Shown here piece after piece: positions 859 through 19,092 of a stretch of DNA of 64,000 bases. The stretch comes from Bacteroidota bacterium. GTDB taxonomy: Bacteria > Bacteroidota > Ignavibacteria > Kapaibacteriales > Kapaibacteriaceae. Each line of letters opens with the position of its first letter. Within the stretch, counting starts at the first letter, position 1. A program made the translations under genes and the position numbers. Under the pieces are notes generated by a model. That model saw only the letters and a list, made by a program, of their open reading frames with translations. It ran no database searches and was not told the origin of the DNA. The stretch spans positions 156,971 through 220,970 of the forward strand of contig JAFDZT010000005.1 in the NCBI GenBank assembly GCA_018266735.1. Direction: 5' to 3'.

Positions 859-1968
859 CTACTTTCCGTAATGAAGGGAGAGATCCATGGCGTTGAAGAT
901 CGCGATGTCGGTCTCTGTTGGTTCGATCACGGAAATGTGAACGTCGACCCATCGACCAGCGTAGGCGAAAAAGTAGTTCACACTTCGCTGGACATATGAC
1001 CGGTCCTTGTAGGTGCCCTTGGAGTCGTATTGGACACGATGATACCACGGAGTAGCAGTGGTTTGAATGGTCTCATGCTGAATGGCCGGATTACGACGTG
1101 CGCGTGGCCAGTAGTACTCGAAACACTTCGTATGGGACGTGGCATCTCCTTTGGGCTGCTCGACAAAGATCGAGATCGTGAATCGATCGGACGATGCCAT
1201 GTATTGATACCCGTCGTTCTTACTGTCCTCTTTCTTGTTCGTCAATGGCGGGGAGAGGAAACCGATCGACCATTCCTGCGATGGGATCGGAAGTTTGGTG
1301 GTGACGAAAGAGGGGAGTGAACGCTTCCACGATGCATATGAGATCGGGTCGATCGTAAGACCGCGAAGCGCATCGACCACGTCCTTTGCAATGGAATTCC
1401 ACTCCATCGCCGTCAAGATCGTGAACGTGATCATGACGTTGTCGATGAACAACGTTCCTTCCGCAACAGCAGGATACGATGGCTCGCCTTCACGATCGGC
1501 CGACGGATCGAAGGTCTTGTCTGTGGCGGTCACAACGCCGCCTATAAGATTTTCGCCCTCGATCGAACGGATAACCATGTGCGTATCGACAGCCTGTTCA
1601 CGCAGGCTTGCCGCGATCGACCCCATGATCTCGTCAACCAGTTCTGTGCGGTCTTTTTCAGATGTGAACACGGTGCGCACGACGGACATATAGGCCGTTC
1701 CTTCACCCGCCTTCGTTCGATCGAACCGTAGCGATAGTTCGCCCTTGTCGTCGAGCTCAGAGGATGGAGCGCTCCAGCCAGCGGGCATCGGGAGCAGCAC
1801 CGTACCTCGTCCCATCACCTTGATGGAGGTTGGCGTTTGCGCAACGAATGGAGAAGGGACAAGAAAGGTCAGAATCAGGAATAGCGGAAGAAGTCGCACA
1901 ATTGCACCCGGTATATGATCGGAGAGGCTCGCTGTGCAAACATCGTCACGAACCTTGCCCCTGTCCAA
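859..1968 (-). CDS. Secreted hypothetical protein, 369 aa, with an N-terminal signal peptide.
   Basis: ORF track. Hydrophobic leader LLPLFLILTFLVPSPFVAQ. No recognisable catalytic motif. Confidence 0.55.
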   Translation of the reverse strand: MDRGKVRDDVCTASLSDHIPGAIVRLLPLFLILTFLVPSPFVAQTPTSIKVMGRGTVLLPMPAGWSAPSSELDDKGELSLRFDRTKAGEGTAYMSVVRTVFTSEKDRTELVDEIMGSIAASLREQAVDTHMVIRSIEGENLIGGVVTATDKTFDPSADREGEPSYPAVAEGTLFIDNVMITFTILTAMEWNSIAKDVVDALRGLTIDPISYASWKRSLPSFVTTKLPIPSQEWSIGFLSPPLTNKKEDSKNDGYQYMASSDRFTISIFVEQPKGDATSHTKCFEYYWPRARRNPAIQHETIQTTATPWYHRVQYDSKGTYKDRSYVQRSVNYFFAYAGRWVDVHISVIEPTETDIAIFNAMDLSLHYGK

Positions 1969-2010
1969 ACACTCTACAACGCCACGTGATACGAAGACAG
2001 CGACCCGTTT

Positions 2011-2865
2011 CTAGTGAAGGATCGACCCGGGCTGCTTGACGTGGATGTCGAGCTGCGGATAGGGAACACGAATTCCGGCCTCGGCGAAGGCGGGTCGGAT
2101 CCCGAAGTTCACGGCACTCTGCAGTGAATCGGGCATGTGTGCGAATTCGCTGGTCCATACCCAGAGATAGAATCTCAATGCGGACTCACCGAAGGATTCA
2201 AAGATCACAATGGGAGGTGGCTCTTTATGGATACCGTCGATCGAATGCGCAACGGCCAAGAGGACGGTTTCGACAAGACGTGGGTCCGAATCAAAGGCCA
2301 CGTTCACGAACACCTTCATGCGCACGGTCTCATAATCGAGCGAACGGTTGATCACGGTCGACCCGATGAAGTACGAGTTCGGAACGATCACCGACACACC
2401 TTCATTTGTGCGGAGCGTTGAGGCGCGGATGGCAATGTCGACGATGTTTCCTTCGATGTTGTCGACCACGATGCGATCGCCCAGTTTGATGGGGCGCTCA
2501 ATGAGGATCACGATACCGCTGACGAAGTTGTTGACGATGTTCTGCAGACCAAAACCGATACCAACGCTCAATGCTCCAAAGATCACGGCAAGGGCACCGA
2601 GGTGTAGTCCGGACCATTGAATGGCCGTGACCCCTGTGACAATGATGATCACATAGCTCGTCAGCATCATCACGGAGTTGATCGGACCCAGATTGGCATC
2701 CGGACGCTTTGCGATACGCTTCATCACCACACGCCGGAACGTTCGCAATACGAAGACCACGATCACGATCATGATCACCGTGAGGAGGAGCGGTTTGATC
2801 GTGATCCCCTGTTCGCCCGTGTTGAGAATGGGGGTGTCGAGCAGAAAGGTCATCAGTTCATTCAT
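2011..2865 (-). CDS. Small-conductance mechanosensitive channel (MscS family).
   Basis: Three N-terminal TM helices plus a conserved MscS core (GFGLQNIVNNFVSGIVILIERPIKLGDRI ... GSTVINRS). Confidence 0.85.
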   Translation of the reverse strand: MNELMTFLLDTPILNTGEQGITIKPLLLTVIMIVIVVFVLRTFRRVVMKRIAKRPDANLGPINSVMMLTSYVIIIVTGVTAIQWSGLHLGALAVIFGALSVGIGFGLQNIVNNFVSGIVILIERPIKLGDRIVVDNIEGNIVDIAIRASTLRTNEGVSVIVPNSYFIGSTVINRSLDYETVRMKVFVNVAFDSDPRLVETVLLAVAHSIDGIHKEPPPIVIFESFGESALRFYLWVWTSEFAHMPDSLQSAVNFGIRPAFAEAGIRVPYPQLDIHVKQPGSILH

Positions 2866-2971
2866 TGAGGTCCAGCGGAAGTACGTTGAGGGATGGTTCG
2901 GTAGAGAGGCAGACTCGAACAGAGCTCAATAGTTCCATAAATTGACCGGCACAGTTGCATGGGAGGGTTCT

Positions 2972-4906
2972 ATGGCATGGGCTGCCACTCTGATCCTGGT
3001 GTTCCTGTTCGGTATCATGCCGAGCCGGGCGCAACTCACGATCACAACACCCAATGGCGGTGAGGTCTTCGATGTAGGCCAAACAGTCACGCTACGATGG
3101 ACAGGTACAGCATTTCCCGATTCGGTCTCGATCGACTATTCGACCGATGCCGGTTCGTCGTGGACGTCCATCGTTCGCAACTGGCAACAGACGACCTATC
3201 GATGGCTCGTTCCGAACACGCCATCAACCCAGTGTCTCCTGCGTGTCACCGGCCCCAAGCGCACTACAGGCAGTGGCGTCGTGCAATTGCGCGATAATGC
3301 GCGCCCCTCGACCATTCCGCACATGTCCATCGACCTTACCAACGACGCCACACGCGCCGTGGTTGCCGATGACGATGGATACGTGATGCTCTTCGATGCC
3401 GTCACGGGCGCCTTGTTGACCAAGCGACAGATCCAACAACCCACGCCCTCCGGGGCACGTGTGGTCCGTGCCGTTCTGTCCAGCGACGAAACATGGGTTG
3501 CCGCCCTTACGGAGGAAGACACCGTCTTCATCCTTCGCATGCCGGACCTCGCTGTACTCGATCATTGGGCAACACGCATCGCAAAACGGGTTCCCCTCGA
3601 AGACAGATGGATCGCCACACAGCCCGGCGGTTCGCGCGTCGCAGTGTCGAGCTTCACCCACTCACGAACGTACGAACGCAACGGAACGGTCGTCGCCGAG
3701 CTCACACGACTCAGTGCGTCATCGAACACATGTATCGACTGGACGCCGGATGGATCAAAGGTGGTGGTGAGCAGCGGGACGGAAGGACACTATCTTGCCG
3801 ATGCAACCACCGGCTCCATGCTGTCAACATTTGTCACCCCATCGTTCTATGGCTTCGTCTCACCGAACGGACAGTATCTCGCATCACAAGCAAAGAACAC
3901 TCAAGCCGTGCTCATCCGCGATCTTGCATCGGGCGCAACGATAGGATCTGTTCCGAGTGCACCGGGCATCTATCCATTTGGCATTGCATGGTATCCCGAC
4001 AACACCATCGTGCGCAATGCAGGTGCCAGTGGCGGACGTCTTGAGCGATTCAACGTCGACGGAACGATCATCGACACGCTCACATCGCAACCGTTCGGAT
4101 TCGGATCGACCTGCTTCAATAGCACGGGCTCAGTTATCGGCGGCGCATCGGGCGGATTTTCCGTGGTCATTCGCACAACCGCAACACCCACTGCCGAACA
4201 GGATGTATCCAATGCCGTGTGGGAGATCCGCGCCGCCATCGTGTCGGACACAGCCACGCTCTCCATCGATTCAGTACGTACAACAACACTGCGCGATATG
4301 CAGGTGCCGATCCGCCTTGCTCCTTCCAATGCCACGATCCTTGCAGGCCTCACATCTCTGGATGTTGATGTGGCATGGAATGCAACGTTGGCGGAGCCGA
4401 AGGGTGGCACGGCAGCAGGGAGCATTGTCAACGGCGTTCGCATGGTCACGATCACCGTACCTGTGGTGCCGATCAGTGCCGATGTTGTTGCTTACCTCGA
4501 CCTGCGTACTGCTCTTGGGAACGATTCTGCAACGGTGCTTCGTATCGTCGATGTACGCGGATCTGTGGATCCAACACGGATCCGCCGTACGGACGGACGA
4601 CTTCTCCTCACAGATCTCTGTGCAAGTGGTGGACTGCGGTTGATGAATGGAGATGGAACTGCTCTACTGATGGCACAACAGCTTGGTGATGTGCTTCGTG
4701 CGGAATGGACGACGATCGAAGATGGCGCGTGCGACATTGTCGTGATGGACGTGATGGGAAGAACGGTTGCGCGACAATGGAGCGATCAGCCGGCCGGCAA
4801 CCATTCAACGACACTGGACATTCGTCCCCTTGCATCGGGGATGCTGTTCGTGATCTTACGCACACCAACGATGTCCATCGTAACTCCGGTGCAGGTGATG
4901 CAATGA
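2972..4906 (+). CDS. Secreted beta-propeller (WD40/PD40-like) repeat protein with a T9SS C-terminal sorting domain.
   Basis: Signal peptide MAWAATLILVFLFGIMPSRAQ. Repeated beta-strand motifs. The C-terminal ~80 aa (…MDVMGRTVARQW…GMLFVILRTPT…) match the Por/T9SS CTD. Its stop overlaps the start of the next gene (ATGA). Confidence 0.7.
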   Translation: MAWAATLILVFLFGIMPSRAQLTITTPNGGEVFDVGQTVTLRWTGTAFPDSVSIDYSTDAGSSWTSIVRNWQQTTYRWLVPNTPSTQCLLRVTGPKRTTGSGVVQLRDNARPSTIPHMSIDLTNDATRAVVADDDGYVMLFDAVTGALLTKRQIQQPTPSGARVVRAVLSSDETWVAALTEEDTVFILRMPDLAVLDHWATRIAKRVPLEDRWIATQPGGSRVAVSSFTHSRTYERNGTVVAELTRLSASSNTCIDWTPDGSKVVVSSGTEGHYLADATTGSMLSTFVTPSFYGFVSPNGQYLASQAKNTQAVLIRDLASGATIGSVPSAPGIYPFGIAWYPDNTIVRNAGASGGRLERFNVDGTIIDTLTSQPFGFGSTCFNSTGSVIGGASGGFSVVIRTTATPTAEQDVSNAVWEIRAAIVSDTATLSIDSVRTTTLRDMQVPIRLAPSNATILAGLTSLDVDVAWNATLAEPKGGTAAGSIVNGVRMVTITVPVVPISADVVAYLDLRTALGNDSATVLRIVDVRGSVDPTRIRRTDGRLLLTDLCASGGLRLMNGDGTALLMAQQLGDVLRAEWTTIEDGACDIVVMDVMGRTVARQWSDQPAGNHSTTLDIRPLASGMLFVILRTPTMSIVTPVQVMQ

Positions 4907-6906
4907 AGCACATAGCGCTCATCTACTTGTGCTGCGCCACCATGGCCGTTGCGCAAGACGAACTCCGTCCACGGTATGGTCTGTTCGCCGGCGTTGGTAT
5001 CAACATGCATGCATCGTCATTCACACAGCTCCCGAATGTTCCGTCGTGCTGTCCCGGATATGGCTCGGACGTTGCCATCGTTCCCTCCATCATGGCCGTC
5101 GCATACTGGCCAATCACCACCAACGTGTTGCTGGGCGGACGTGTCGGGTATGCACCGCTTTCGGGCACGCTGAGTCGCGATGAGGCAACTCGTGTGATGC
5201 AAGGCGGCACGGTCGTCGACGGGATGTTCCGACATACGATCGAGGCAACGTTGAATGCCATTGCAGCCGAGCCCACCGTGTCGTGGAATGCATTCGATCA
5301 ACTGTTCGTTGATGCAGGACTGCGCGTCTCATACATGTTCGCACCAACGTACGCACAGGCAGAGACCATCGTCAGCCCTGCGAACGGCGGAACGTATGTC
5401 GACGCTTCCGGTACCGACACACGATCGCGCACACGGAATGTCTCTGCGGGAGATCTTGCAACATCAAGCATTCATGTTGCCGTCACGGCATCGCTTCGGT
5501 ACGAACTGCCATTGAATTCCGAGAACTCACTGTTCCTTGCTCCCGACGTTGGTGTGGCATACGGCATGACGTCGATCGCGAACGTCGACTGGAGTGTGCA
5601 TCCGTTCCACGCAGGACTCACGTTGCTGTGGCAGCCACAGGCAACACCCGAACAACATCTCGGAACACCTGGCGCGGCACCCACACCAAGTGTGCCCGTG
5701 TTGCCCTCGACCCTTGCCGCCCTCGTGCCTTCGCCAAAGATGTTGGACGTTGGGTTGGGCTTGTATTCCGTGCGCGACGATGGCGGCCTGGATACGCTCG
5801 AGAAGATCGTTGTTGACGAGACGATCTCCGAGCAGATCACGGCCATGTTGCCGATGGTCTTCTTTGACCAGGGACAGGAGGAGATTCCGATCCGATACCC
5901 TCCGAATTTCGACCTCGATCAGTTCTCCGAGCGACTGCTGTTCGGTAAAAGCGCCCTTGATGTCTACCATCGCATTCTCGACATCGTAGGGAAACGAATG
6001 CAAGAGCATCCCGCAGCAACGCTTACCCTCACCGGCGCGATCATGCCGGACTCTGTGGAGACGGTGGCGTCGGGACTTGCACTTCGTCGCGCAGAATATG
6101 TTCGAGACTATCTTCAGCAGTTTTGGGAGATAGCACCGCAACGAATTCCCATACGGGCACGTGAACTGCCCGAGCAACCAAGTAGTGTGAAACACGAAGA
6201 CGGTCGCGCCGAGAACCGTCGCGTCGATCTTGCTTCCGACGATCCGTTCATCCTCGATCTGTTGCGTCTCGAAGACACTCTGCGTACCGTGACCACTCCC
6301 GATGTGGTCGTGCGACCGACGGTGTTCTCCGATACCACGATCACATCGTGGTCGATCACCTGCATCGCCGACGGCAAGCTGCTCACGACGCAGTACGGCA
6401 TGGGCCAGCCTCCCGCAAGCATCCGTATCCCGGTAACGGGAGGGTTGCAGGGCGGCACGGTAGACGTGGTGATGACCGTCGACAATGCCGGAGGTCGTCA
6501 TCGAGAAGCAGAAGCACATCTCCCGGTGGTACTACAAACACTTGCCTCGAAGGCACAGAAGCGACAAGGACTCAAGCGCATCGACGAGTACGGTTTGATC
6601 CTCTTTGCGTTTGGGAAGGCATCGCTCGAAGGTCCGAACGCACGCATCCTCGACATGATCCGACAACGGATCGAGCCAACGTCGACGGTGATCGTTCGCG
6701 GACATGCAGATCGGACGGGATCCGCCGAGATCAACCTACGCCTCACACAAGAACGTGCCGAGGCAGTGGGGAATGCGTTGGGCGCACCACGTACCGATGT
6801 GCGTGGCATGGGTCAGAAGAACATGCTCTACGACAACGACCTTCCGGAGGGCCGCTACTACAACCGCACCGTCCGAGTACGAGTGGAGACTCCGGTTGCG
6901 AACTAG
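4903..6906 (+). CDS. OmpA-family outer membrane protein with two tandem C-terminal OmpA-like peptidoglycan-binding domains.
   Basis: Signal peptide MKHIALIYLCCATMAVAQ. Two OmpA_C-like modules (…AENRRVDL… and …GHADRTGSAEINLRLTQERAEAV…NRTVRVRVETP). Start overlaps the upstream stop (ATGA). Confidence 0.75.
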   Translation: MKHIALIYLCCATMAVAQDELRPRYGLFAGVGINMHASSFTQLPNVPSCCPGYGSDVAIVPSIMAVAYWPITTNVLLGGRVGYAPLSGTLSRDEATRVMQGGTVVDGMFRHTIEATLNAIAAEPTVSWNAFDQLFVDAGLRVSYMFAPTYAQAETIVSPANGGTYVDASGTDTRSRTRNVSAGDLATSSIHVAVTASLRYELPLNSENSLFLAPDVGVAYGMTSIANVDWSVHPFHAGLTLLWQPQATPEQHLGTPGAAPTPSVPVLPSTLAALVPSPKMLDVGLGLYSVRDDGGLDTLEKIVVDETISEQITAMLPMVFFDQGQEEIPIRYPPNFDLDQFSERLLFGKSALDVYHRILDIVGKRMQEHPAATLTLTGAIMPDSVETVASGLALRRAEYVRDYLQQFWEIAPQRIPIRARELPEQPSSVKHEDGRAENRRVDLASDDPFILDLLRLEDTLRTVTTPDVVVRPTVFSDTTITSWSITCIADGKLLTTQYGMGQPPASIRIPVTGGLQGGTVDVVMTVDNAGGRHREAEAHLPVVLQTLASKAQKRQGLKRIDEYGLILFAFGKASLEGPNARILDMIRQRIEPTSTVIVRGHADRTGSAEINLRLTQERAEAVGNALGAPRTDVRGMGQKNMLYDNDLPEGRYYNRTVRVRVETPVAN

Positions 6907-13112: not shown

Positions 13113-13708
13113 TGAAACCAAACGCAGTTCCCCATCCGAAGGTCGACGCCTTCCTTGAAAAGGCAACGAAGTGGCAACGTGAAATGCAGGCGCTCAGGGC
13201 TCTCCTGCTTGCATCGGGACTCACGGAAGAGCTCAAATGGTACCAACCGGTGTACACGCTCAACGGCAAGAACGTTGTGATCATCAGTTGTTTCAAGGAG
13301 CACTGTGTGCTGGGCTTCTTCAAAGGCGTACTGCTTCGCGACGAACATCATATGCTGCAGAAGCCGGGCGAGAACACGCAGTCGTCGCGGTTCTTCAAAT
13401 TCACATCTCTGCAAGAGATCACGAAGCGCAAGCCCATCATCAAGGCCTACATTCAAGAGGCCATCGAGGTGGAGAAGGCAGGCTCGACCGTTGAGTTCAA
13501 GAAGATCACGGAACGGCCGATCCCGGAAGAACTCCAGCAGCGATTCAAGAAGCAACCCTCCCTGAAGAAGGCCTTTGAATCACTCACTCCCGGACGTCAA
13601 CGCGCCTATCTCATGCACTTCACGTCGGCAAAGCAAACCGCAACACGTGTAGCGCGCATCGAGAAATGCGTGCCGCGCATCATGGAGGGGAAGGGTCTGA
13701 CGGATTGA
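13109..13708 (+). CDS. YdeI/OmpD-associated (DUF1801-like) family protein.
   Basis: MMKPNAVPHPKVDAFLEKATKWQ… and the C-terminal …AFESLTPGRQRAYLMHFTSAKQTATRVARIEKCVPRI are typical of this family. ATGATG start overlaps the upstream stop. Confidence 0.6.
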   Translation: MMKPNAVPHPKVDAFLEKATKWQREMQALRALLLASGLTEELKWYQPVYTLNGKNVVIISCFKEHCVLGFFKGVLLRDEHHMLQKPGENTQSSRFFKFTSLQEITKRKPIIKAYIQEAIEVEKAGSTVEFKKITERPIPEELQQRFKKQPSLKKAFESLTPGRQRAYLMHFTSAKQTATRVARIEKCVPRIMEGKGLTD

Positions 13709-13718
13709 GGGGGGGGGG
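13709..13718. repeat. Homopolymeric G10 tract in the intergenic region upstream of the Type III mod gene.
   Basis: Read directly: tgaGGGGGGGGGGatatg immediately after the stop of the YdeI-like gene, about 215 bp upstream of the mod ATG. Confidence 0.9.
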
Positions 13719-13933
13719 ATATGACAAGTGTTGAACATGATGGAAGTTGTATACTCGTGATGGACAACGACAGATACGCTATTTTCGGAAACAAAAAAGG
13801 TCGGATGAGATATGCATACCGACAATTGCTCATTCGGATGAATCATACAGAGTAGTGGCATTGAGAAATGCTCCACTCCGTGAATATCCCAGCTATAAAC
13901 AGTGAACATAGCATGCTTGAAGGGATTCGCTAA

Positions 13934-15529
13934 ATGCCATCTTTGAATTGGATCGGTAAAGACGCAGTTGTGAGGCATCATAAGGACGTGCCGTTTCGAC
14001 TGCTCGAAGCAGTGCCTGAATTGTCGTGTGGCCCATCGGATTCGGGCAACTTGATCGTTCAAGGCGATAACCTTCACGCGCTGAAAGCTCTACTACCTCG
14101 ATACGCCGGACAAGTGAAGTGTATCTATATCGATCCACCGTACAACACGGGCAATGAGGGTTGGGTCTACAACGACAACGTCAACAGCCCGGAAATCCGC
14201 AAATGGTTAGGTGAAGTTGTTGGTAAAGAAGGCGAGACATTGGATCGACACGACCGTTGGCTATCGATGATGTACCCACGACTGGTCTTGTTGAAACAGT
14301 TTCTGAGCGAGGACGGAGCGATCTTCATTTCAATTGATGATAATGAAGTGGCGTCACTACGGCTGCTCATGGATGAGATTTTTGGAAAATCAAATTTTGT
14401 TGCCTGCAATACTTGGCAAAAACGATATTCAAGAGAAAATCGAGTTGCAATCGGTGATGCTCACGAGTACGTCGTCACTTACGCGATAAATCCAGTCAAG
14501 TTCAAGCACTCAGCCAAAAAATTGCCGCTTGGGCCAAAGCAACTTGCCGTTTACAAGAATCCAAACAATGATGTGCGAGGGAGATGGCGAGCGGTATCGT
14601 TATCTGCTCAAGGATATCGGCCAAACCAAATGTATGAAATCACATCCCCACAAACAGGTAAAAAGCACAGGCCACCGGAAGGGTCCTGTTGGAAAGTAAT
14701 TGAGTCGGAATACAAACGCCTATTGGAGGATGGACGAATCTACTTTGGAAAGGATGGGAATGCAGTTCCACAGCGCATACAGTTTCTCTCGAGTATTGAA
14801 GGCATTGCACCATGGACTTGGTGGCCTCATGAAGAAGTAGGCCATACCGATGAATCAAGAAAAGAGATTCAAGAGATATTTGGCACTCAAACAGCATTTG
14901 AAACACCAAAGCCCACACGGTTGATTCAGCGCATTTTGCAAATTGCCACCGATGCAAATTCTGTCATACTTGACAGCTTTTCTGGCTCCGGCACAACAGG
15001 CCATGCTGTATTAAAACAAAACACCGAAGACGGTGGAAACCGTCGCTTCATCCTAGTCGAAATGGATGAGGATATAGCGCGTGATGTTACGGCTGAGCGT
15101 GTGAAGCGGATCGCATCAGGGTACATTAATGCCAAAGGTGAAGCCGTCAATGGTCTAGGAGGAGGATTCCAGTTCTTTCATCTCTCTGATGAGCCACTCT
15201 TCGACGCCACGGGCCAGATTCGAAGTGACGTTAAGTTTGAGCAATTGGCAGAGTTCGTTTGGTTTGCGGAGACCGGCACCGGCTATAGTGGGCCCTCAGA
15301 TTCACCACTTCTTGGTATACACGAAGGTCGAGCAATCTATCTGCTGTACAATGGCATACTTAAGGACAAGTCATTTGGCGGTGGCAATGTACTCACTGCT
15401 GAGGTTTACGATATCCTGCCACCGTTTACAGGTCCGAAAGTGATCTACGCCGCTGCGAATCGCATGGGTGCTCGAGCCTCGCGTGAGGGCATCACCTTCA
15501 AGCAGACTCCCTATGCATTGGAGGTATGA
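13934..15529 (+). CDS. mod: Type III restriction-modification system methyltransferase (Mod, N6-adenine).
   Basis: Motif IV IYIDPPYNTG. Upstream GDNLHALKAL and the downstream WQKRYSREN / catalytic region are typical of Type III Mod. Low-GC codon usage. Followed by res. Confidence 0.9.
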   Translation: MPSLNWIGKDAVVRHHKDVPFRLLEAVPELSCGPSDSGNLIVQGDNLHALKALLPRYAGQVKCIYIDPPYNTGNEGWVYNDNVNSPEIRKWLGEVVGKEGETLDRHDRWLSMMYPRLVLLKQFLSEDGAIFISIDDNEVASLRLLMDEIFGKSNFVACNTWQKRYSRENRVAIGDAHEYVVTYAINPVKFKHSAKKLPLGPKQLAVYKNPNNDVRGRWRAVSLSAQGYRPNQMYEITSPQTGKKHRPPEGSCWKVIESEYKRLLEDGRIYFGKDGNAVPQRIQFLSSIEGIAPWTWWPHEEVGHTDESRKEIQEIFGTQTAFETPKPTRLIQRILQIATDANSVILDSFSGSGTTGHAVLKQNTEDGGNRRFILVEMDEDIARDVTAERVKRIASGYINAKGEAVNGLGGGFQFFHLSDEPLFDATGQIRSDVKFEQLAEFVWFAETGTGYSGPSDSPLLGIHEGRAIYLLYNGILKDKSFGGGNVLTAEVYDILPPFTGPKVIYAAANRMGARASREGITFKQTPYALEV

Positions 15530-16052
15530 GGTGGCAGAAGATTTGAAGATCATCATCATCGCCGGACCCAATGGTGCGGGTAAGACGACATTTGCAAGAG
15601 AGTTTCTGCCTCATGAGGCGAATTGTCCTGTGTTTGTGAATGCAGATCTGATCGCGTCTGGATTGTCTCCCTTTGCTCCGGAACACGTCGTCTTTCAGGC
15701 TGGACGATTGATGCTTGAGGAAATGGAACGTCACGTTCAAGCTCGGCGTAGCTTCGCGTTCGAGACAACATTGTCGGGACGCGCTTACCTTCAACATATT
15801 CGGAAGTGGAAGGCTGCCGGATATCGTGTTGAGTTGATCTTTCTTCAACTGCAGAGTGCCGACGAGGCGGTCGCTCGAGTGGCGCAGCGAGTTGCGCAAG
15901 GTGGGCATGACATCCCTGAGGAAGTTGTTCGACGCCGTTTCGAAGTCGGACTGCATAACTTCAGTCGTTACTACGCACCTGCTGTTGATATGTGGGCCCT
16001 TTACGACAATTCGTATGAGTCACCTCTATTGCTTGATTGGAGTGAACAATGA
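15513..16052 (+). CDS. Zeta-toxin-like P-loop kinase/ATPase (COG4185 / PF06414-like), embedded between mod and res.
   Basis: Walker A IIIIAGPNGAGKTT. C-terminal GGHDIPEEVVRRRFEVGLHNF, which resembles the zeta/PezT-family conserved GGHxVP…RRY motif. Start ambiguous (ATG 15513 or GTG 15531); either overlaps or abuts the mod stop at 15529. Confidence 0.7.
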   Translation: MHWRYEVAEDLKIIIIAGPNGAGKTTFAREFLPHEANCPVFVNADLIASGLSPFAPEHVVFQAGRLMLEEMERHVQARRSFAFETTLSGRAYLQHIRKWKAAGYRVELIFLQLQSADEAVARVAQRVAQGGHDIPEEVVRRRFEVGLHNFSRYYAPAVDMWALYDNSYESPLLLDWSEQ

Positions 16053-16270
16053 GCAAACCAAAGTCTATTGAAACGGCATTGAATAGTGATCTCCGCGGGT
16101 CTTGGATTGCCATACATCGTGCGGCTGCACGCGCTCGACAAATTGCCATGCAGACAGGTACTGCCTTGGTTGTAGTTAGGAACGGAGTGCTGGAACATTT
16201 GTATCCCGTATCTGAACCGAACGTAGATCGTGCTGCCGAGTCTGAGGCACGATACGGAGAGTCGTCATGA
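16049..16270 (+). CDS. Small hypothetical protein (73 aa), translationally coupled on both sides (zeta-like stop and res start).
   Basis: ATGA overlap with the zeta-like stop at 16049-16052, and ATGA overlap with the res start at 16267-16270. Low GC like the neighbours. No recognisable motif. Confidence 0.5.
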   Translation: MSKPKSIETALNSDLRGSWIAIHRAAARARQIAMQTGTALVVVRNGVLEHLYPVSEPNVDRAAESEARYGESS

Positions 16271-18963
16271 GCGCATTTGCCCCTAAAGTTTATCAGCAAC
16301 AAGTACTGGACAGTGTCGAGGCTTATTTCAAAGTATGCCACGAGCAAAAGTCACCATCGATCGCATTTACAATTACGACAGAACAATTGTGGGGACGAGG
16401 CAATCCCTATAATCCGCTGACTGGATTCCCCGCCGACATGCCTTACTTCTGCCTACGAGTACCTACAGGCGGTGGTAAGACGTGGCTCGCTGCAAAGAGT
16501 GTCCAACTGATCAATACACATCTGCTGCGCTGCGAGTACAGCGTGATCTTGTGGTTGGTACCGAGCAAACCTATCCGCGAACAGACAATAAAGGCACTAC
16601 GGGATCGAACGCATCCCTATCACGCTGCATTGCGTGAAGCCGGACCCATCACAGTGCTTGATCTTGAAGAGGCCAAGAGCGTCACTCGCTCCACGCTAGA
16701 CACTTCCACCACGATTATTGTCGCAACACGGCAAGCATTTCAAGTTGAATACGAAGAATGCCGAAAAGTATACCAGTCGAGTGGCGCACTGATGCATCAT
16801 TTCGATAATCTGTCGACGCAACAGCGCGATGTATTGCTCTACGAAGGTAGCGATGCCGAACGAACGGTGCCGTACTCGCTCGTGAACGTCCTTCGTATGC
16901 GACGCCCATTCGTTGTTGTGGACGAAGCGCACAATAGCCGCACGGAGCTTTCCTTTGATATGCTTGCACGGTTTCGACCAAGTGGAGTGATGGAGCTGAC
17001 GGCTACTCCCGACCTTGAACGAACTCCAAGCAATGTGTTGCACAGTGTTTCTGCCGCCGAACTGAAGGCGGAAGAAATGATCAAGCTACCAGTGATATTG
17101 CAGACAGAACCGAATTGGCAACAATGTTTGGCAGATGCCATCGGACGTCGCGAGGCCCTTCATACGCTTGCCGATGCCGAACACCGGGTAGGCAGTCCCT
17201 ATTTGCGACCCCTTGTACTCATCCAGTCGGAACCGCGCCGCACTGGGGTGGAGACATTGGACTTCGAGCGTGTCCGCAATGAGCTGATCACCAATCACAA
17301 TATCCCATCCTATGAGATTGTGGTAGCAACTGGAGAAGAAAAGGGGCTCGAGCAGATCGATGCCCAATACAAGCATGGAATTTCTGATCCAGCCTGCCCA
17401 GTGAAGTATGTCATCACTCAGAAGGCGCTGGCCGAAGGCTGGGATTGCCCCTTCGCCTACATTCTCGTGAGCATGGCTTCACTCTCATCGGCAACAGCAG
17501 TTGAACAAATACTTGGACGTGTGTTACGACAGCCTGGCGCCAGCCATCGGCAGGCCACTGCACTGAATCAGTCATATGCCTTTGTCGTATCGCGGAATTT
17601 TGCCGAGACGGCAAGTGCCTTGCGTGACAAATTAGTGTTAGGAGCAGGGTTTGAACGGCGCGATGTGGCAGGGTTTGTGATAGCCGCAACACCGGAGCAA
17701 GCTAGACTTGACCTCGATGCTCAGATTGCCTTTGAGCCAGTAAAAGTAATGTTGTCCGAAACGCCTGATCTTAAGAGCGTTTCCAAGCAGATACGTGAAA
17801 AGGTAAGCTGGGATGTCAAGCACAACACTCTAACAATCAGTAAACCGCTAACCGAGGATGAAACGGCTGTTCTCAAGGCCGCAGTCACCTCAGAAGAAGT
17901 AGCCTCGAAGATTGCTGTAGCAGCCCAAGAAAGTCGCGCCCAAGTGCCGGACTTCATGCAGTCGCCTGCAGAATTGGGAGAGCGCTTCCGGGTGCCGCAG
18001 TTGGCCTTACGAGTACAGGGTAAATTGGCATTGTTTGATGACGCGGAGATACTGGAGTATCCATGGGATCTCTCGATTTACGATGCTGTACCTTCTCCCG
18101 AAGAACGGCGGACATTAGGTTTAGCGATGAATGCCTCCGAGCTAGGCACCGTCGACGTCGGTTATGAAGGTCATGTGAACGTAAGCTTCCTATCTGGTGT
18201 ACAGCGAGATCTTGGACTGGTGTATCAACCGGAGAATTGGGATGAAGTGCGCATTGCCACTTGGTTGTGCCGCAATCTTCCCGAACCATCTTTAACGCAC
18301 GCGAATAAGCAAGCCTTTGTAATAAAGTGGTTGTCTGAGCTGTTGTCATCCCCTGACTACACGTTGGCTCGAGCAAGTTTGCAGAAGTTCATGCTCCGAA
18401 ACATTTTAGAGTCACGCATTCGTGACATGCGCAAGAAAGCGATACGAAAAGCCTATCAACAGGAGCTGTTTGGTGACGATGCGGCTAAGCACGTTGCAGT
18501 AACCGATACCTACTCCTTTGAGTTTCCCGCGTACACGTATGCGCCAACTCGCGACTACGACCCAAAGAAGTATGGACAGTTCAGTTTCAAAAAGCACTAT
18601 TACAGACGCATCGGAGACTTCGACAGCAAGGAGGAATTCGAATGCGCATGTTGGCTTGATACTCAGGCGCAGAAGGGACGAATCCAATTCTGGGTGAGAA
18701 ACCTTGTGCGGCGTGAAGGCAGTTCATTCTTTCTACAGAAAGCAGATGGTCGCTTCTATCCAGACTTTCTGTGCCAGTTGCCCGGAACGAATGGAGAGCG
18801 CGGCCCTGTCCTTGTGGTTGAGTACAAGGGTGCCGACCGAATGGTAGCTGCTGAAGACGACCAAAAGATAGGTCAACTTTGGGCGAACCTCTCCGGGGGT
18901 AGATGTCGGTTTGTAATGGTCACCGATAAGAAGTGGGAAATGATAGAGGAGCAACTGAGTTGA
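16267..18963 (+). CDS. res: Type III restriction enzyme Res subunit (SF2 helicase plus C-terminal PD-(D/E)xK endonuclease).
   Basis: Walker A VPTGGGKT. Motif II VVVDEAHN. Motif VI EQILGRVLRQ. C-terminal nuclease signature …YPDFLCQ…VVEYKG. Confidence 0.9.
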   Translation: MSAFAPKVYQQQVLDSVEAYFKVCHEQKSPSIAFTITTEQLWGRGNPYNPLTGFPADMPYFCLRVPTGGGKTWLAAKSVQLINTHLLRCEYSVILWLVPSKPIREQTIKALRDRTHPYHAALREAGPITVLDLEEAKSVTRSTLDTSTTIIVATRQAFQVEYEECRKVYQSSGALMHHFDNLSTQQRDVLLYEGSDAERTVPYSLVNVLRMRRPFVVVDEAHNSRTELSFDMLARFRPSGVMELTATPDLERTPSNVLHSVSAAELKAEEMIKLPVILQTEPNWQQCLADAIGRREALHTLADAEHRVGSPYLRPLVLIQSEPRRTGVETLDFERVRNELITNHNIPSYEIVVATGEEKGLEQIDAQYKHGISDPACPVKYVITQKALAEGWDCPFAYILVSMASLSSATAVEQILGRVLRQPGASHRQATALNQSYAFVVSRNFAETASALRDKLVLGAGFERRDVAGFVIAATPEQARLDLDAQIAFEPVKVMLSETPDLKSVSKQIREKVSWDVKHNTLTISKPLTEDETAVLKAAVTSEEVASKIAVAAQESRAQVPDFMQSPAELGERFRVPQLALRVQGKLALFDDAEILEYPWDLSIYDAVPSPEERRTLGLAMNASELGTVDVGYEGHVNVSFLSGVQRDLGLVYQPENWDEVRIATWLCRNLPEPSLTHANKQAFVIKWLSELLSSPDYTLARASLQKFMLRNILESRIRDMRKKAIRKAYQQELFGDDAAKHVAVTDTYSFEFPAYTYAPTRDYDPKKYGQFSFKKHYYRRIGDFDSKEEFECACWLDTQAQKGRIQFWVRNLVRREGSSFFLQKADGRFYPDFLCQLPGTNGERGPVLVVEYKGADRMVAAEDDQKIGQLWANLSGGRCRFVMVTDKKWEMIEEQLS

Positions 18964-19092
18964 GCTCAACGTTGGACAATACCACCCGCCTCTGATCAAC
19001 TGAGCAGTTAGATGGAGTTTACCTAGTTATACCCTCTCAAGATAAACTCGCTAAACTGTGTATAACTCTGCCCCCGACCCCCCCTGAAACAC

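Follow-up and report, generated by a model that had tools for sequence, protein, structure and literature searches.

What does a 73-residue protein of no recognisable kind do between a zeta-like kinase and the restriction subunit of a type III restriction-modification (R-M) system? The question is raised by a stretch of 64,000 nucleotides (nt) from a Bacteroidota bacterium of the Kapaibacteriaceae (GenBank assembly GCA_018266735.1, contig JAFDZT010000005.1, positions 156,971 to 220,970 of the forward strand), hereafter the window, in which four plus-strand genes stand head to tail in the order mod, kinase, small open reading frame (ORF) and res. The small ORF (16049..16270, 73 amino acids (aa)) had been taken, in a sequence-only reading of the same DNA, either for the partner of the kinase or for a specificity or regulatory subunit of Res. 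We propose, with moderate confidence, that its product is the proteic (type II) antitoxin of the short zeta-like kinase, in a module whose toxin gene comes first; the toxicity of the kinase, its physical binding by the small protein and its inhibition are all things that we infer. The proposal is founded on the pairing of the two genes, their independence from R-M genes, further members found through the kinase, natural fusions, asymmetric gene decay, the kinship of the kinase with a clade of toxins, and partner swapping among related kinases.

A conserved small gene that follows the kinase

The coordinates and sequence of the 73-aa ORF were confirmed, and so were the 4-bp ATGA overlaps that bound it. 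At its start, the ATGA at 16049-16052 contains both the ATG of the ORF (16049-16051) and the TGA that ends the kinase gene (16050-16052); at its end, the ATGA at 16267-16270 contains the res ATG (16267-16269) and the TGA of the ORF (16268-16270). A first search returned 13 close homologues (58-99% identity), in which the core from I7 to P53 is invariant; a profile search of 1.84 billion representative proteins then gave 725 clusters (50% identity) at E<=1e-3, and a second, word-indexed search gave 919 proteins, all named ones being called 'hypothetical protein' and none carrying a Pfam domain. The core signature is DLRGSW..RAA.RAR..A.QTGTALVVVRNGV.EH.YP. Over 18 loci the ratio of nonsynonymous to synonymous substitution rates (dN/dS) comes to 0.23 over the full ORF and falls to 0.12 within residues 7-53, synonymous sites being close to saturated; the kinase has 0.09. 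dN is 0.39 for the small protein versus 0.15 for the kinase, so that the former evolves about 2.6 times faster. The ORF is short, and database annotation offers nothing beyond 'hypothetical', as would suit a chance open frame between two real genes; we give that explanation practically no credence, given the hundreds of homologues, the constrained core, the conserved length and start/stop overlaps, and a confidently predicted fold. The 73-aa ORF is a real conserved gene of a large unnamed family, in keeping with the earlier judgement that it is almost certainly translated.

The family is equally without a name at the level of domains. Searches with the 73-aa protein and with a 108-sequence profile against Pfam, NCBIfam, PADLOC and PDB sequences gave nothing meaningful, the 108 members scanned singly against Pfam gave only noise, and PDB sequence and profile searches with the family found no match at E<=10 except designed repeat proteins. 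The statement that the protein lacks a recognisable motif is thereby upheld; the word 'orphan', understood as lineage-restricted, is not, since the family is large and widespread and merely unannotated. The sequence-only reading had said that it would fall if the ORF were unconserved in homologous islands or clearly belonged to a known family; the ORF is conserved in them and joins no known family.

The neighbourhood of the gene was surveyed in 119 loci gathered through the small protein (by exact-protein look-ups, a scan of GTDB genomes and a scan of metagenomes that started from a second subfamily) and scored by tblastn with the four proteins of the window. The pairing count used the 98 loci in which the DNA reaches 540 nt or more beyond the start of the small gene: a full-length kinase lies directly upstream in 82, a kinase remnant in 7 and no kinase in 9, and in every kinase-bearing locus the small gene stands downstream of the kinase. 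Of 31 called pairs, 27 have the start codon of the small gene overlapping the kinase stop codon (ATGA or GTGA), and the remaining four (L007-L010) have an alternative overlapping ATG, which the gene caller used. R-M context was counted in the 40 loci whose flanks extend for 2.3 kb or more upstream and 1.5 kb or more downstream: mod and res surround the pair in 20, neither is present in 14, and only R-M remnants are left in 6. Standalone pairs are flanked by unrelated housekeeping genes, for example ruvB, an ABC permease or inositol monophosphatase, and one locus (L015, 642-1630) holds an intact kinase-small pair flanked by stubs of mod (33 aa) and res (38 aa). A distant member (L037) sits in a helicase-RhuM-kinase-small-hsdM array, and in L040 the pair precedes an HsdR-like N-terminus. 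This survey makes the kinase and the small protein the constant unit and the R-M genes a frequent but optional company that extends beyond type III systems. We regard it as very probable that the 73-aa protein is the cognate partner of the upstream kinase; the positional assignment made from sequence alone, with gene order reversed relative to epsilon/zeta and PezA/PezT, is thus sustained by the 82 of 98 paired loci, the 14 of 40 R-M-free pairs and the fusions described below.

The same counts bear on the other proposal, in which the small protein would be directed at Res, either as a C-protein-like controller or as a regulatory or specificity subunit that times or tunes it. Its ORF overlaps the res start, its last codons supply the res Shine-Dalgarno sequence (GGAGAG, 16256..16261, from the Gly-Glu codons of the tail motif and 5 nt before the res ATG), and the member in L036 follows a different Res-like helicase with no kinase. 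Against this stand the 14 loci with a kinase but no res, the 6 more with R-M remnants only, another gene lying between the small ORF and res in L001-L006, the lack of similarity to any Pfam or PDB entry, and a predicted structure of one helix and a hairpin with no helix-turn-helix (HTH). The gene keeps company with the kinase rather than with res, and its product has no HTH; for these reasons the Res-subunit or controller role is not supported, and we hold it to be very unlikely; the earlier note's alternative is accordingly set aside. A secondary link of the small protein to Res through its C-terminal motif may nevertheless exist.

Several loci show how the cassette varies. In L017 the kinase-small pair (5140-6222) is intact and only stubs of the R-M genes are left, whereas L114 (5526-8991) has kept the small gene and res, with mod cut down to 123 aa and the kinase to 30 aa; L015, L017 and L114 represent different stages of cassette decay. 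The closest four-gene relatives (L001-L006) carry the extra gene mentioned above, a PF09720 (Unstab_antitox) gene (8252-8458 in L001; 2577-2816 in L002, where a 26-aa ORF follows at 2816-2896), and this insertion looks like the remnant of a second toxin-antitoxin (TA) system within the same operon that has lost its toxin. Two small genes stand in tandem in L016 (6001-6493). The second (6335-6493) lacks a kinase and has in front of it a 24-aa piece of the mod C-terminus (6258-6329), as might be left by a duplicated mod-kinase-small junction that later lost its kinase. In L026 an overlapping ATGA (6222-6225) joins the end of the small gene to the start of a 354-aa ORF that we take, by eye, to be ruvB-like, and the module was apparently inserted precisely upstream of a core gene.

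The two proteins also occur as one. P0130, from an NCBI genome (locus L043) with no R-M genes nearby, is a single 244-aa chain of kinase and small domain, and in two IMG/VR loci (L130 and L132) the small domain is joined in frame to the kinase C-terminus. Other members join the small domain to an HTH_17 domain (P0065, 6.7e-13) or to a DUF433 domain (P0083, 2.9e-24). In seven loci the small gene is intact and the adjoining kinase is a fragment or is broken by a deletion or frameshift: in L068, L091 and L114 the kinase is reduced to its last 30-45 residues, and in L084 kinase residues 24-94 are deleted. If the kinase is the harmful partner, decay should run in just this direction, with the kinase truncated and the small gene left whole; the sample, ascertained through the small gene, displays one direction only.

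Members found through the kinase provide a second approach. With the small protein as tblastn query, plasmid and phage collections yielded no match, and all members from there came through the kinase. The search of PLSDB plasmids with the kinase returned 212 records. The closest plasmid kinase, a 'zeta toxin family protein' of 61% identity on pSYSG of Synechocystis sp. PCC 6803, is followed with a 4-bp overlap by a small protein of 59 aa that matches the hidden Markov model (HMM) of the family at E 5e-16 and has no C-terminal tail; by gene order the pair is sll8004 (kinase) and ssl8003 (small protein). The island around it (L120, record 1920-6601) comprises a DUF433/PIN pair, hsdS, an MNT-like nucleotidyltransferase gene, the kinase and small genes, a DUF4433 (DarT-like) gene and a macro-domain (DarG-like) gene. 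Plasmid kinases of Crocosphaera, Nostoc, Parabacteroides and Legionella (45-51% identity) all have an overlapping downstream ORF of 55-66 aa, encoding an amphipathic helix followed by the pattern G/T-x-h-h-h-x-[RK]-[DN]-G-x-h-h. IMG/VR contributed six kinases of 50-58% identity, with a separate small ORF in L127, L128, L129 and L131 and the fused form in L130 and L132. An HHalign comparison of the window family with the partners of the distant kinases gave a probability of 97.3% (E 2e-11) over a 47-residue core, and on this ground we place both in one superfamily.

Kinases of only 30-35% identity are accompanied instead by an unrelated hypothetical gene of about 80 codons, which lies upstream and abuts or overlaps the kinase start. 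Examples are found on E. coli pRHB15-C18_3 (L135, 1247-2082) and on an Agrobacterium pTi (L136, 1245-2079); the L135 type occurs in the kle/kor region of conjugative plasmids of E. coli (IncP-like) and Salmonella, and the L136 type on Ti plasmids. The upstream gene probably represents a different, also uncharacterised antitoxin family, and such partner swapping among kinases is the mix-and-match pattern typical of TA systems. A Phaeobacter plasmid (L126, 1153-2259) encodes a 368-aa 'zeta toxin family protein' with an extension of about 120 residues N-terminal to the P-loop, reminiscent of the single-chain TA fusions of the EzeT type. One further candidate, a kinase followed by a Phd/YefM antitoxin gene (L134), was dropped, as that antitoxin pairs with a downstream YoeB-like toxin.

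The kinase as a putative toxin

The kinase gene (15531..16052) encodes a 173-aa zeta-like or polynucleotide kinase (PNK)-like P-loop kinase, the putative toxin; its start is the GTG at 15531, one base past the mod stop codon, with the ATG at 15513 as a possible start of a 179-aa form. It matches Pfam Zeta_toxin (PF06414) at 4.9e-10 (39.6 bits against a cutoff of 22.3) and AAA_33 at 7.8e-10. The kinase has over 8000 close relatives, which go by the names 'zeta toxin family protein', 'AAA family ATPase' or 'predicted ABC-type ATPase'; its homologues are 173-174 aa long, and a literature search for COG4185 found no papers. Foldseek with the kinase model ranked zeta first (1gvn, 6.5e-7), followed by PezT, AvrRxo1 and Clostridium thermocellum Pnk (CthPnk), all at about 1e-6. 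The invariant residues are the Walker A segment G12-T20, N37/D39, E78-T79-T80, R116, R120 and G124-G125-H126. By published residue numbers these landmarks are collinear with those of Rv0366c of Mycobacterium tuberculosis (GPNGAGKS 9-16, D36, E75, R116 and H122), a short zeta-like kinase whose overexpression is bacteriostatic, requires K15, D36 and R116 and is relieved by the upstream antitoxin Rv0367c (PMC6362051). The Zeta_toxin match, the Foldseek ranking and this collinearity speak for a place of the kinase in a clade of toxins.

A toxin-first module would work as follows. The kinase and the small protein would form an autonomous two-gene unit coupled in translation through the ATGA overlap, so that production of the kinase would always bring production of the small protein with it. 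The helix-plus-hairpin core, probably as a dimer, would bind the kinase and block its ATP or substrate site, and the disordered linker and tail could either make the small protein labile or provide a second contact. Once synthesis stops or the small protein is removed, the freed kinase would phosphorylate an essential metabolite or a nucleic-acid end and arrest growth. In the window, the module nested between mod and res and co-transcribed with them may stabilise the island or act as a second, abortive line of defence. The pair has several generic traits of a TA module, its genes being adjacent, overlapping and conserved as a unit, and its small protein evolving faster than the kinase and being predicted as partly disordered.

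A set of observations weighs against the antitoxin assignment and tempers our confidence in it. The small gene has no kinase in 9 of the 98 loci. The best PDB profile match of the kinase is the Pnkp1 kinase domain (3.6e-4), and its sequence matched no zeta or PezT structure in the PDB searches. By inspection it lacks the GTXR motif that binds UDP-N-acetylglucosamine (UNAG), reading E78-T-T-L-S-G-R where zeta and PezT carry E-G-T-x-R after the catalytic Glu (PMC6362051). Since GTXR is absent and PNK is as close as zeta, the toxicity of the kinase is not a given. The collinearity of the kinase landmarks with those of Rv0366c, which likewise has no GTXR (PMC6362051), is one of published residue numbers and not an alignment. 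No conserved palindrome was found upstream of nine standalone pairs, so that autoregulation from such an operator is unsupported. The Synechocystis pair appears in the work of Kopfmann et al. only among genes 'related to TA modules' that failed the criteria (PMC4963859). Finally, a concatenated kinase-small AlphaFold2 model, built from an alignment of mostly small-protein homologues with three kinase-bearing rows, speaks neither for nor against an interface and gave no sign that the tail docks: the predicted local distance difference test (pLDDT) score of the tail was about 50 and that of the small core fell from about 94 to about 80, with the kinase mostly at 80-95 and at 56-74 around residues 21-50.

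As for the loci without a kinase (L031, 1086-2935; L033, 3033-4875; L036, 567-4057), two of these members adjoin genes that we take, by eye, to be AbiEi/AbiEii-like, and one lies between an 843-aa, presumably Res-like helicase and a protein that looks Fic-like by eye. The small domain in such loci may be occasionally reused with other partners, or the genes may be relics.

Part of this evidence would fit a kinase that is not toxic at all, a housekeeping-type or defence-effector enzyme such as a polynucleotide 5'-kinase, for which the small protein would serve as activator, specificity factor or substrate. The affinity of the sequence profile to Pnkp1, the presence of CthPnk among the top structural matches and the missing UNAG-binding motif all agree with it, the fusions are equally compatible with a stable two-domain enzyme, and the conserved Tyr of the tail motif could, speculatively, be a phospho-acceptor. 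Such a role nevertheless seems to us improbable: the module behaves like a selfish element, with a patchy spread, a presence on plasmids and in defence islands among TA genes, and survival through R-M decay; the loci with a truncated kinase and an intact partner fit the loss of a toxin; and Rv0366c, a collinear short kinase, is toxic.

The small protein, its tail and the restriction-modification operon

An AlphaFold2 model of the small protein from the 108-sequence alignment (mean pLDDT 81) has a helix at residues 18-36 and a beta-hairpin at 40-44/47-51. The conserved folded core (residues 7-53, 16067..16207) reaches pLDDT 88-95 and is the part delimited by the alignments, the low dN/dS and the HHalign comparison; confidence drops from about residue 55, and residues 54-73 (16208..16267; pLDDT 52-71) form a predicted disordered tail of a variable linker and a C-terminal motif. 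The sequence-only reading had suggested a fold search on a predicted structure, and Foldseek of the monomer model against the PDB gave no significant match (best E 0.95) and hence no known family. MADS-box domains, the top matches by virtue of the same helix-hairpin topology, were rejected as insignificant (E 0.95 at best). Neither family searches nor the predicted fold revealed a DNA-binding domain or an HTH in the 73-aa protein.

The tail ends in AESEARYGESS in the window protein, a weaker version of the VQEPxxPYGDKP motif of its relatives. The Gly-Asp/Glu/Lys codons of this motif double as the purine-rich ribosome-binding site of res, and a role of YG(D/E/K) as ribosome-binding site only was considered and rejected as the whole explanation. 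In the VQEPxxPYGDKP subfamily pN/pS is 0.88 in the linker, 0.34 in the last 12 codons and 0.27 in the core; because synonymous positions vary while the residues are kept (0.34 versus 0.88), the constraint on the motif is at least partly at the level of the protein. As raw counts that ignore kinship, the motif is present in 23 of 38 loci where res follows directly and in 12 of 51 without res. It also occurs in the R-M-free loci L043, L062 and L067 and in L072, which has kept mod and lost res, and the tails of standalone pairs are often shortened or degenerate.

A rival proposal makes the small protein a guard or adaptor that would attach the kinase to the type III R-M enzyme, with the core gripping the kinase and the C-terminal motif touching Res or Mod. 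Disabling of the enzyme by an anti-restriction protein of a phage would then release the kinase and abort the infection, in parallel to PrrC held by EcoprrI. The repeated nesting in R-M operons (20 of 40 loci with mod and res; genes of type I systems, hsdM, hsdR or hsdS, beside L037, L040 and the pSYSG pair) speaks for it, as do the purifying selection on the motif next to a neutral linker, the enrichment of the motif before res, the degeneration of tails in standalone pairs and the loss of the kinase from L114 with retention of the small gene and res. The motif, however, is also carried by the R-M-free loci and the res-less L072 named above, the Synechocystis member has no tail, the enrichment takes no account of phylogeny, and the Gly-Asp/Glu/Lys codons have their second duty in the translation of res. 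We therefore consider a guard unlikely, and slightly less likely still its explicit form, in which the VQEPxxPYGDKP-type peptide binds Res or Mod, and inactivation or sequestration of the R-M enzyme destabilises the small protein and unleashes the kinase as an abortive-infection effector. If it were true, PrrC/EcoprrI would have a counterpart with a protein antitoxin, in the form of a four-gene cassette conserved in many Betaproteobacteria and Gammaproteobacteria.

The antitoxin role, which we prefer, leaves the R-M genes as hosts of the module, and the layout of the window shows how closely it is fitted among them. The first gene of the operon is mod (13934..15529), a type III DNA methyltransferase gene (PADLOC MTase_III, 4.8e-206; Pfam N6_N4_Mtase, 7.4e-36), and the last is res (16267..18963), encoding the type III restriction helicase-nuclease (PADLOC REase_III, 2.6e-109; Pfam ResIII, 4.7e-13). 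Each internal gene reads its Shine-Dalgarno sequence from the gene before it: a GGAGG within the mod 3' end (15520..15524, from sequence reading) lies 6 nt before the kinase GTG, and a GGAG within the Trp-Ser codons (TGG AGT) of the kinase (16039..16042) lies 6 nt before the ATG of the 73-aa ORF, where TGGAG upstream of ATGA is kept in most homologous loci. A consensus scan of the block found no excess of internal promoter-like or terminator-like sites over shuffled sequence. The G+C content of the mod-kinase-small-res block (window 13500-19000) is 47-53%, versus 56-60% in the flanks; the flanking genes, judged by eye from translated ORFs, are presumably a YdeI/DUF1801-like gene and housekeeping genes for CoaE, thioredoxin and enolase, and the minus strand has a strong hairpin (19119-19094) past the res end. 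The lower G+C content, together with the housekeeping-type neighbours and the hairpin after res, suggests that the block is a horizontally acquired island.

Relation to known systems

TA systems with a zeta-type kinase, the toxin-first order (AvrRxo1/Arc1) and TA systems joined to defence systems (PrrC; PezAT-Hachiman, PMC13064477) are already known. What is new is a putative antitoxin family with no Pfam entry or solved structure and with one passing mention in the literature, its tight and widespread link with a kinase clade, and the conserved mod-kinase-small-res cassette. The unnamed small-protein family would give a widespread clade of 'zeta toxin family' kinases a testable TA architecture, in which the toxin gene comes first, the antitoxin has a new fold and single-chain fusions occur naturally. 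The recurrence of the pair as a passenger in type III and type I R-M operons bears on the stabilisation of defence islands, and its nesting there bears on whether R-M systems carry built-in abortive back-ups.

The pair resembles epsilon/zeta of pSM19035 and PezA/PezT, which also combine a Zeta_toxin kinase with a small proteic antitoxin and whose toxins are the top Foldseek matches of the window kinase. The relation of epsilon, which has no DNA-binding domain, to PezA (an HTH plus an epsilon-like domain) is paralleled by that of the standalone small domain to the P0065 and P0083 fusions. The gene order, however, is reversed, the window kinase falls short of theirs by about 100 residues and is without the UNAG motif, and the three-helix bundle of epsilon and PezA differs from the helix and beta-hairpin predicted for the 73-aa protein, with no sequence or structure match between them.

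PezAT(Mtb) (Rv0367c-Rv0366c) resembles the pair in its toxin, a short (<200 aa) zeta-like P-loop kinase that lacks GTXR, is toxic and is neutralised by a small adjacent protein (PMC6362051). By published residue numbers the landmark spacing is also shared, with GPNGAGK[ST], Asp at +27, Glu at +39 and Arg...His in a GGH-type motif. In contrast, its antitoxin is encoded upstream, has a predicted ribbon-helix-helix plus PezA-like domain and is unrelated to the 73-aa protein, and the system, reported to occur almost only in Corynebacteriales, does not lie within R-M genes (PMC6362051).

The gene order of the window is matched by AvrRxo1-ORF1/ORF2 (Arc1) of Xanthomonas, in which a zeta/PNK-like kinase comes first and its small cognate inhibitor directly downstream (PMC4938570; PDB 4z8q), and AvrRxo1 is among the top structural matches of the window kinase. 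AvrRxo1, however, is a type III-secreted effector that phosphorylates NAD (PMC4938570); the fold search with the small protein returned neither ORF2 nor any chain at E<0.9, and PDB sequence searches returned none.

PrrC/EcoprrI and PezAT joined to Hachiman (PMC13064477) share with the window a toxic effector gene placed inside or attached to a co-transcribed defence operon. Unlike the kinase, PrrC is an anticodon nuclease silenced by the R-M enzyme itself, with no separate antitoxin, and for the present pair a coupling to R-M is a proposal only.

Sll8004/Ssl8003 of pSYSG is a true family member by the kinase identity, the HMM match of the small protein and the 4-bp overlap given above, and its defence island holds type I R-M and DarT/DarG-like genes as neighbours. 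It differs in having no C-terminal tail and in its type I rather than type III context, and it offers a tractable member of the family in a model organism.

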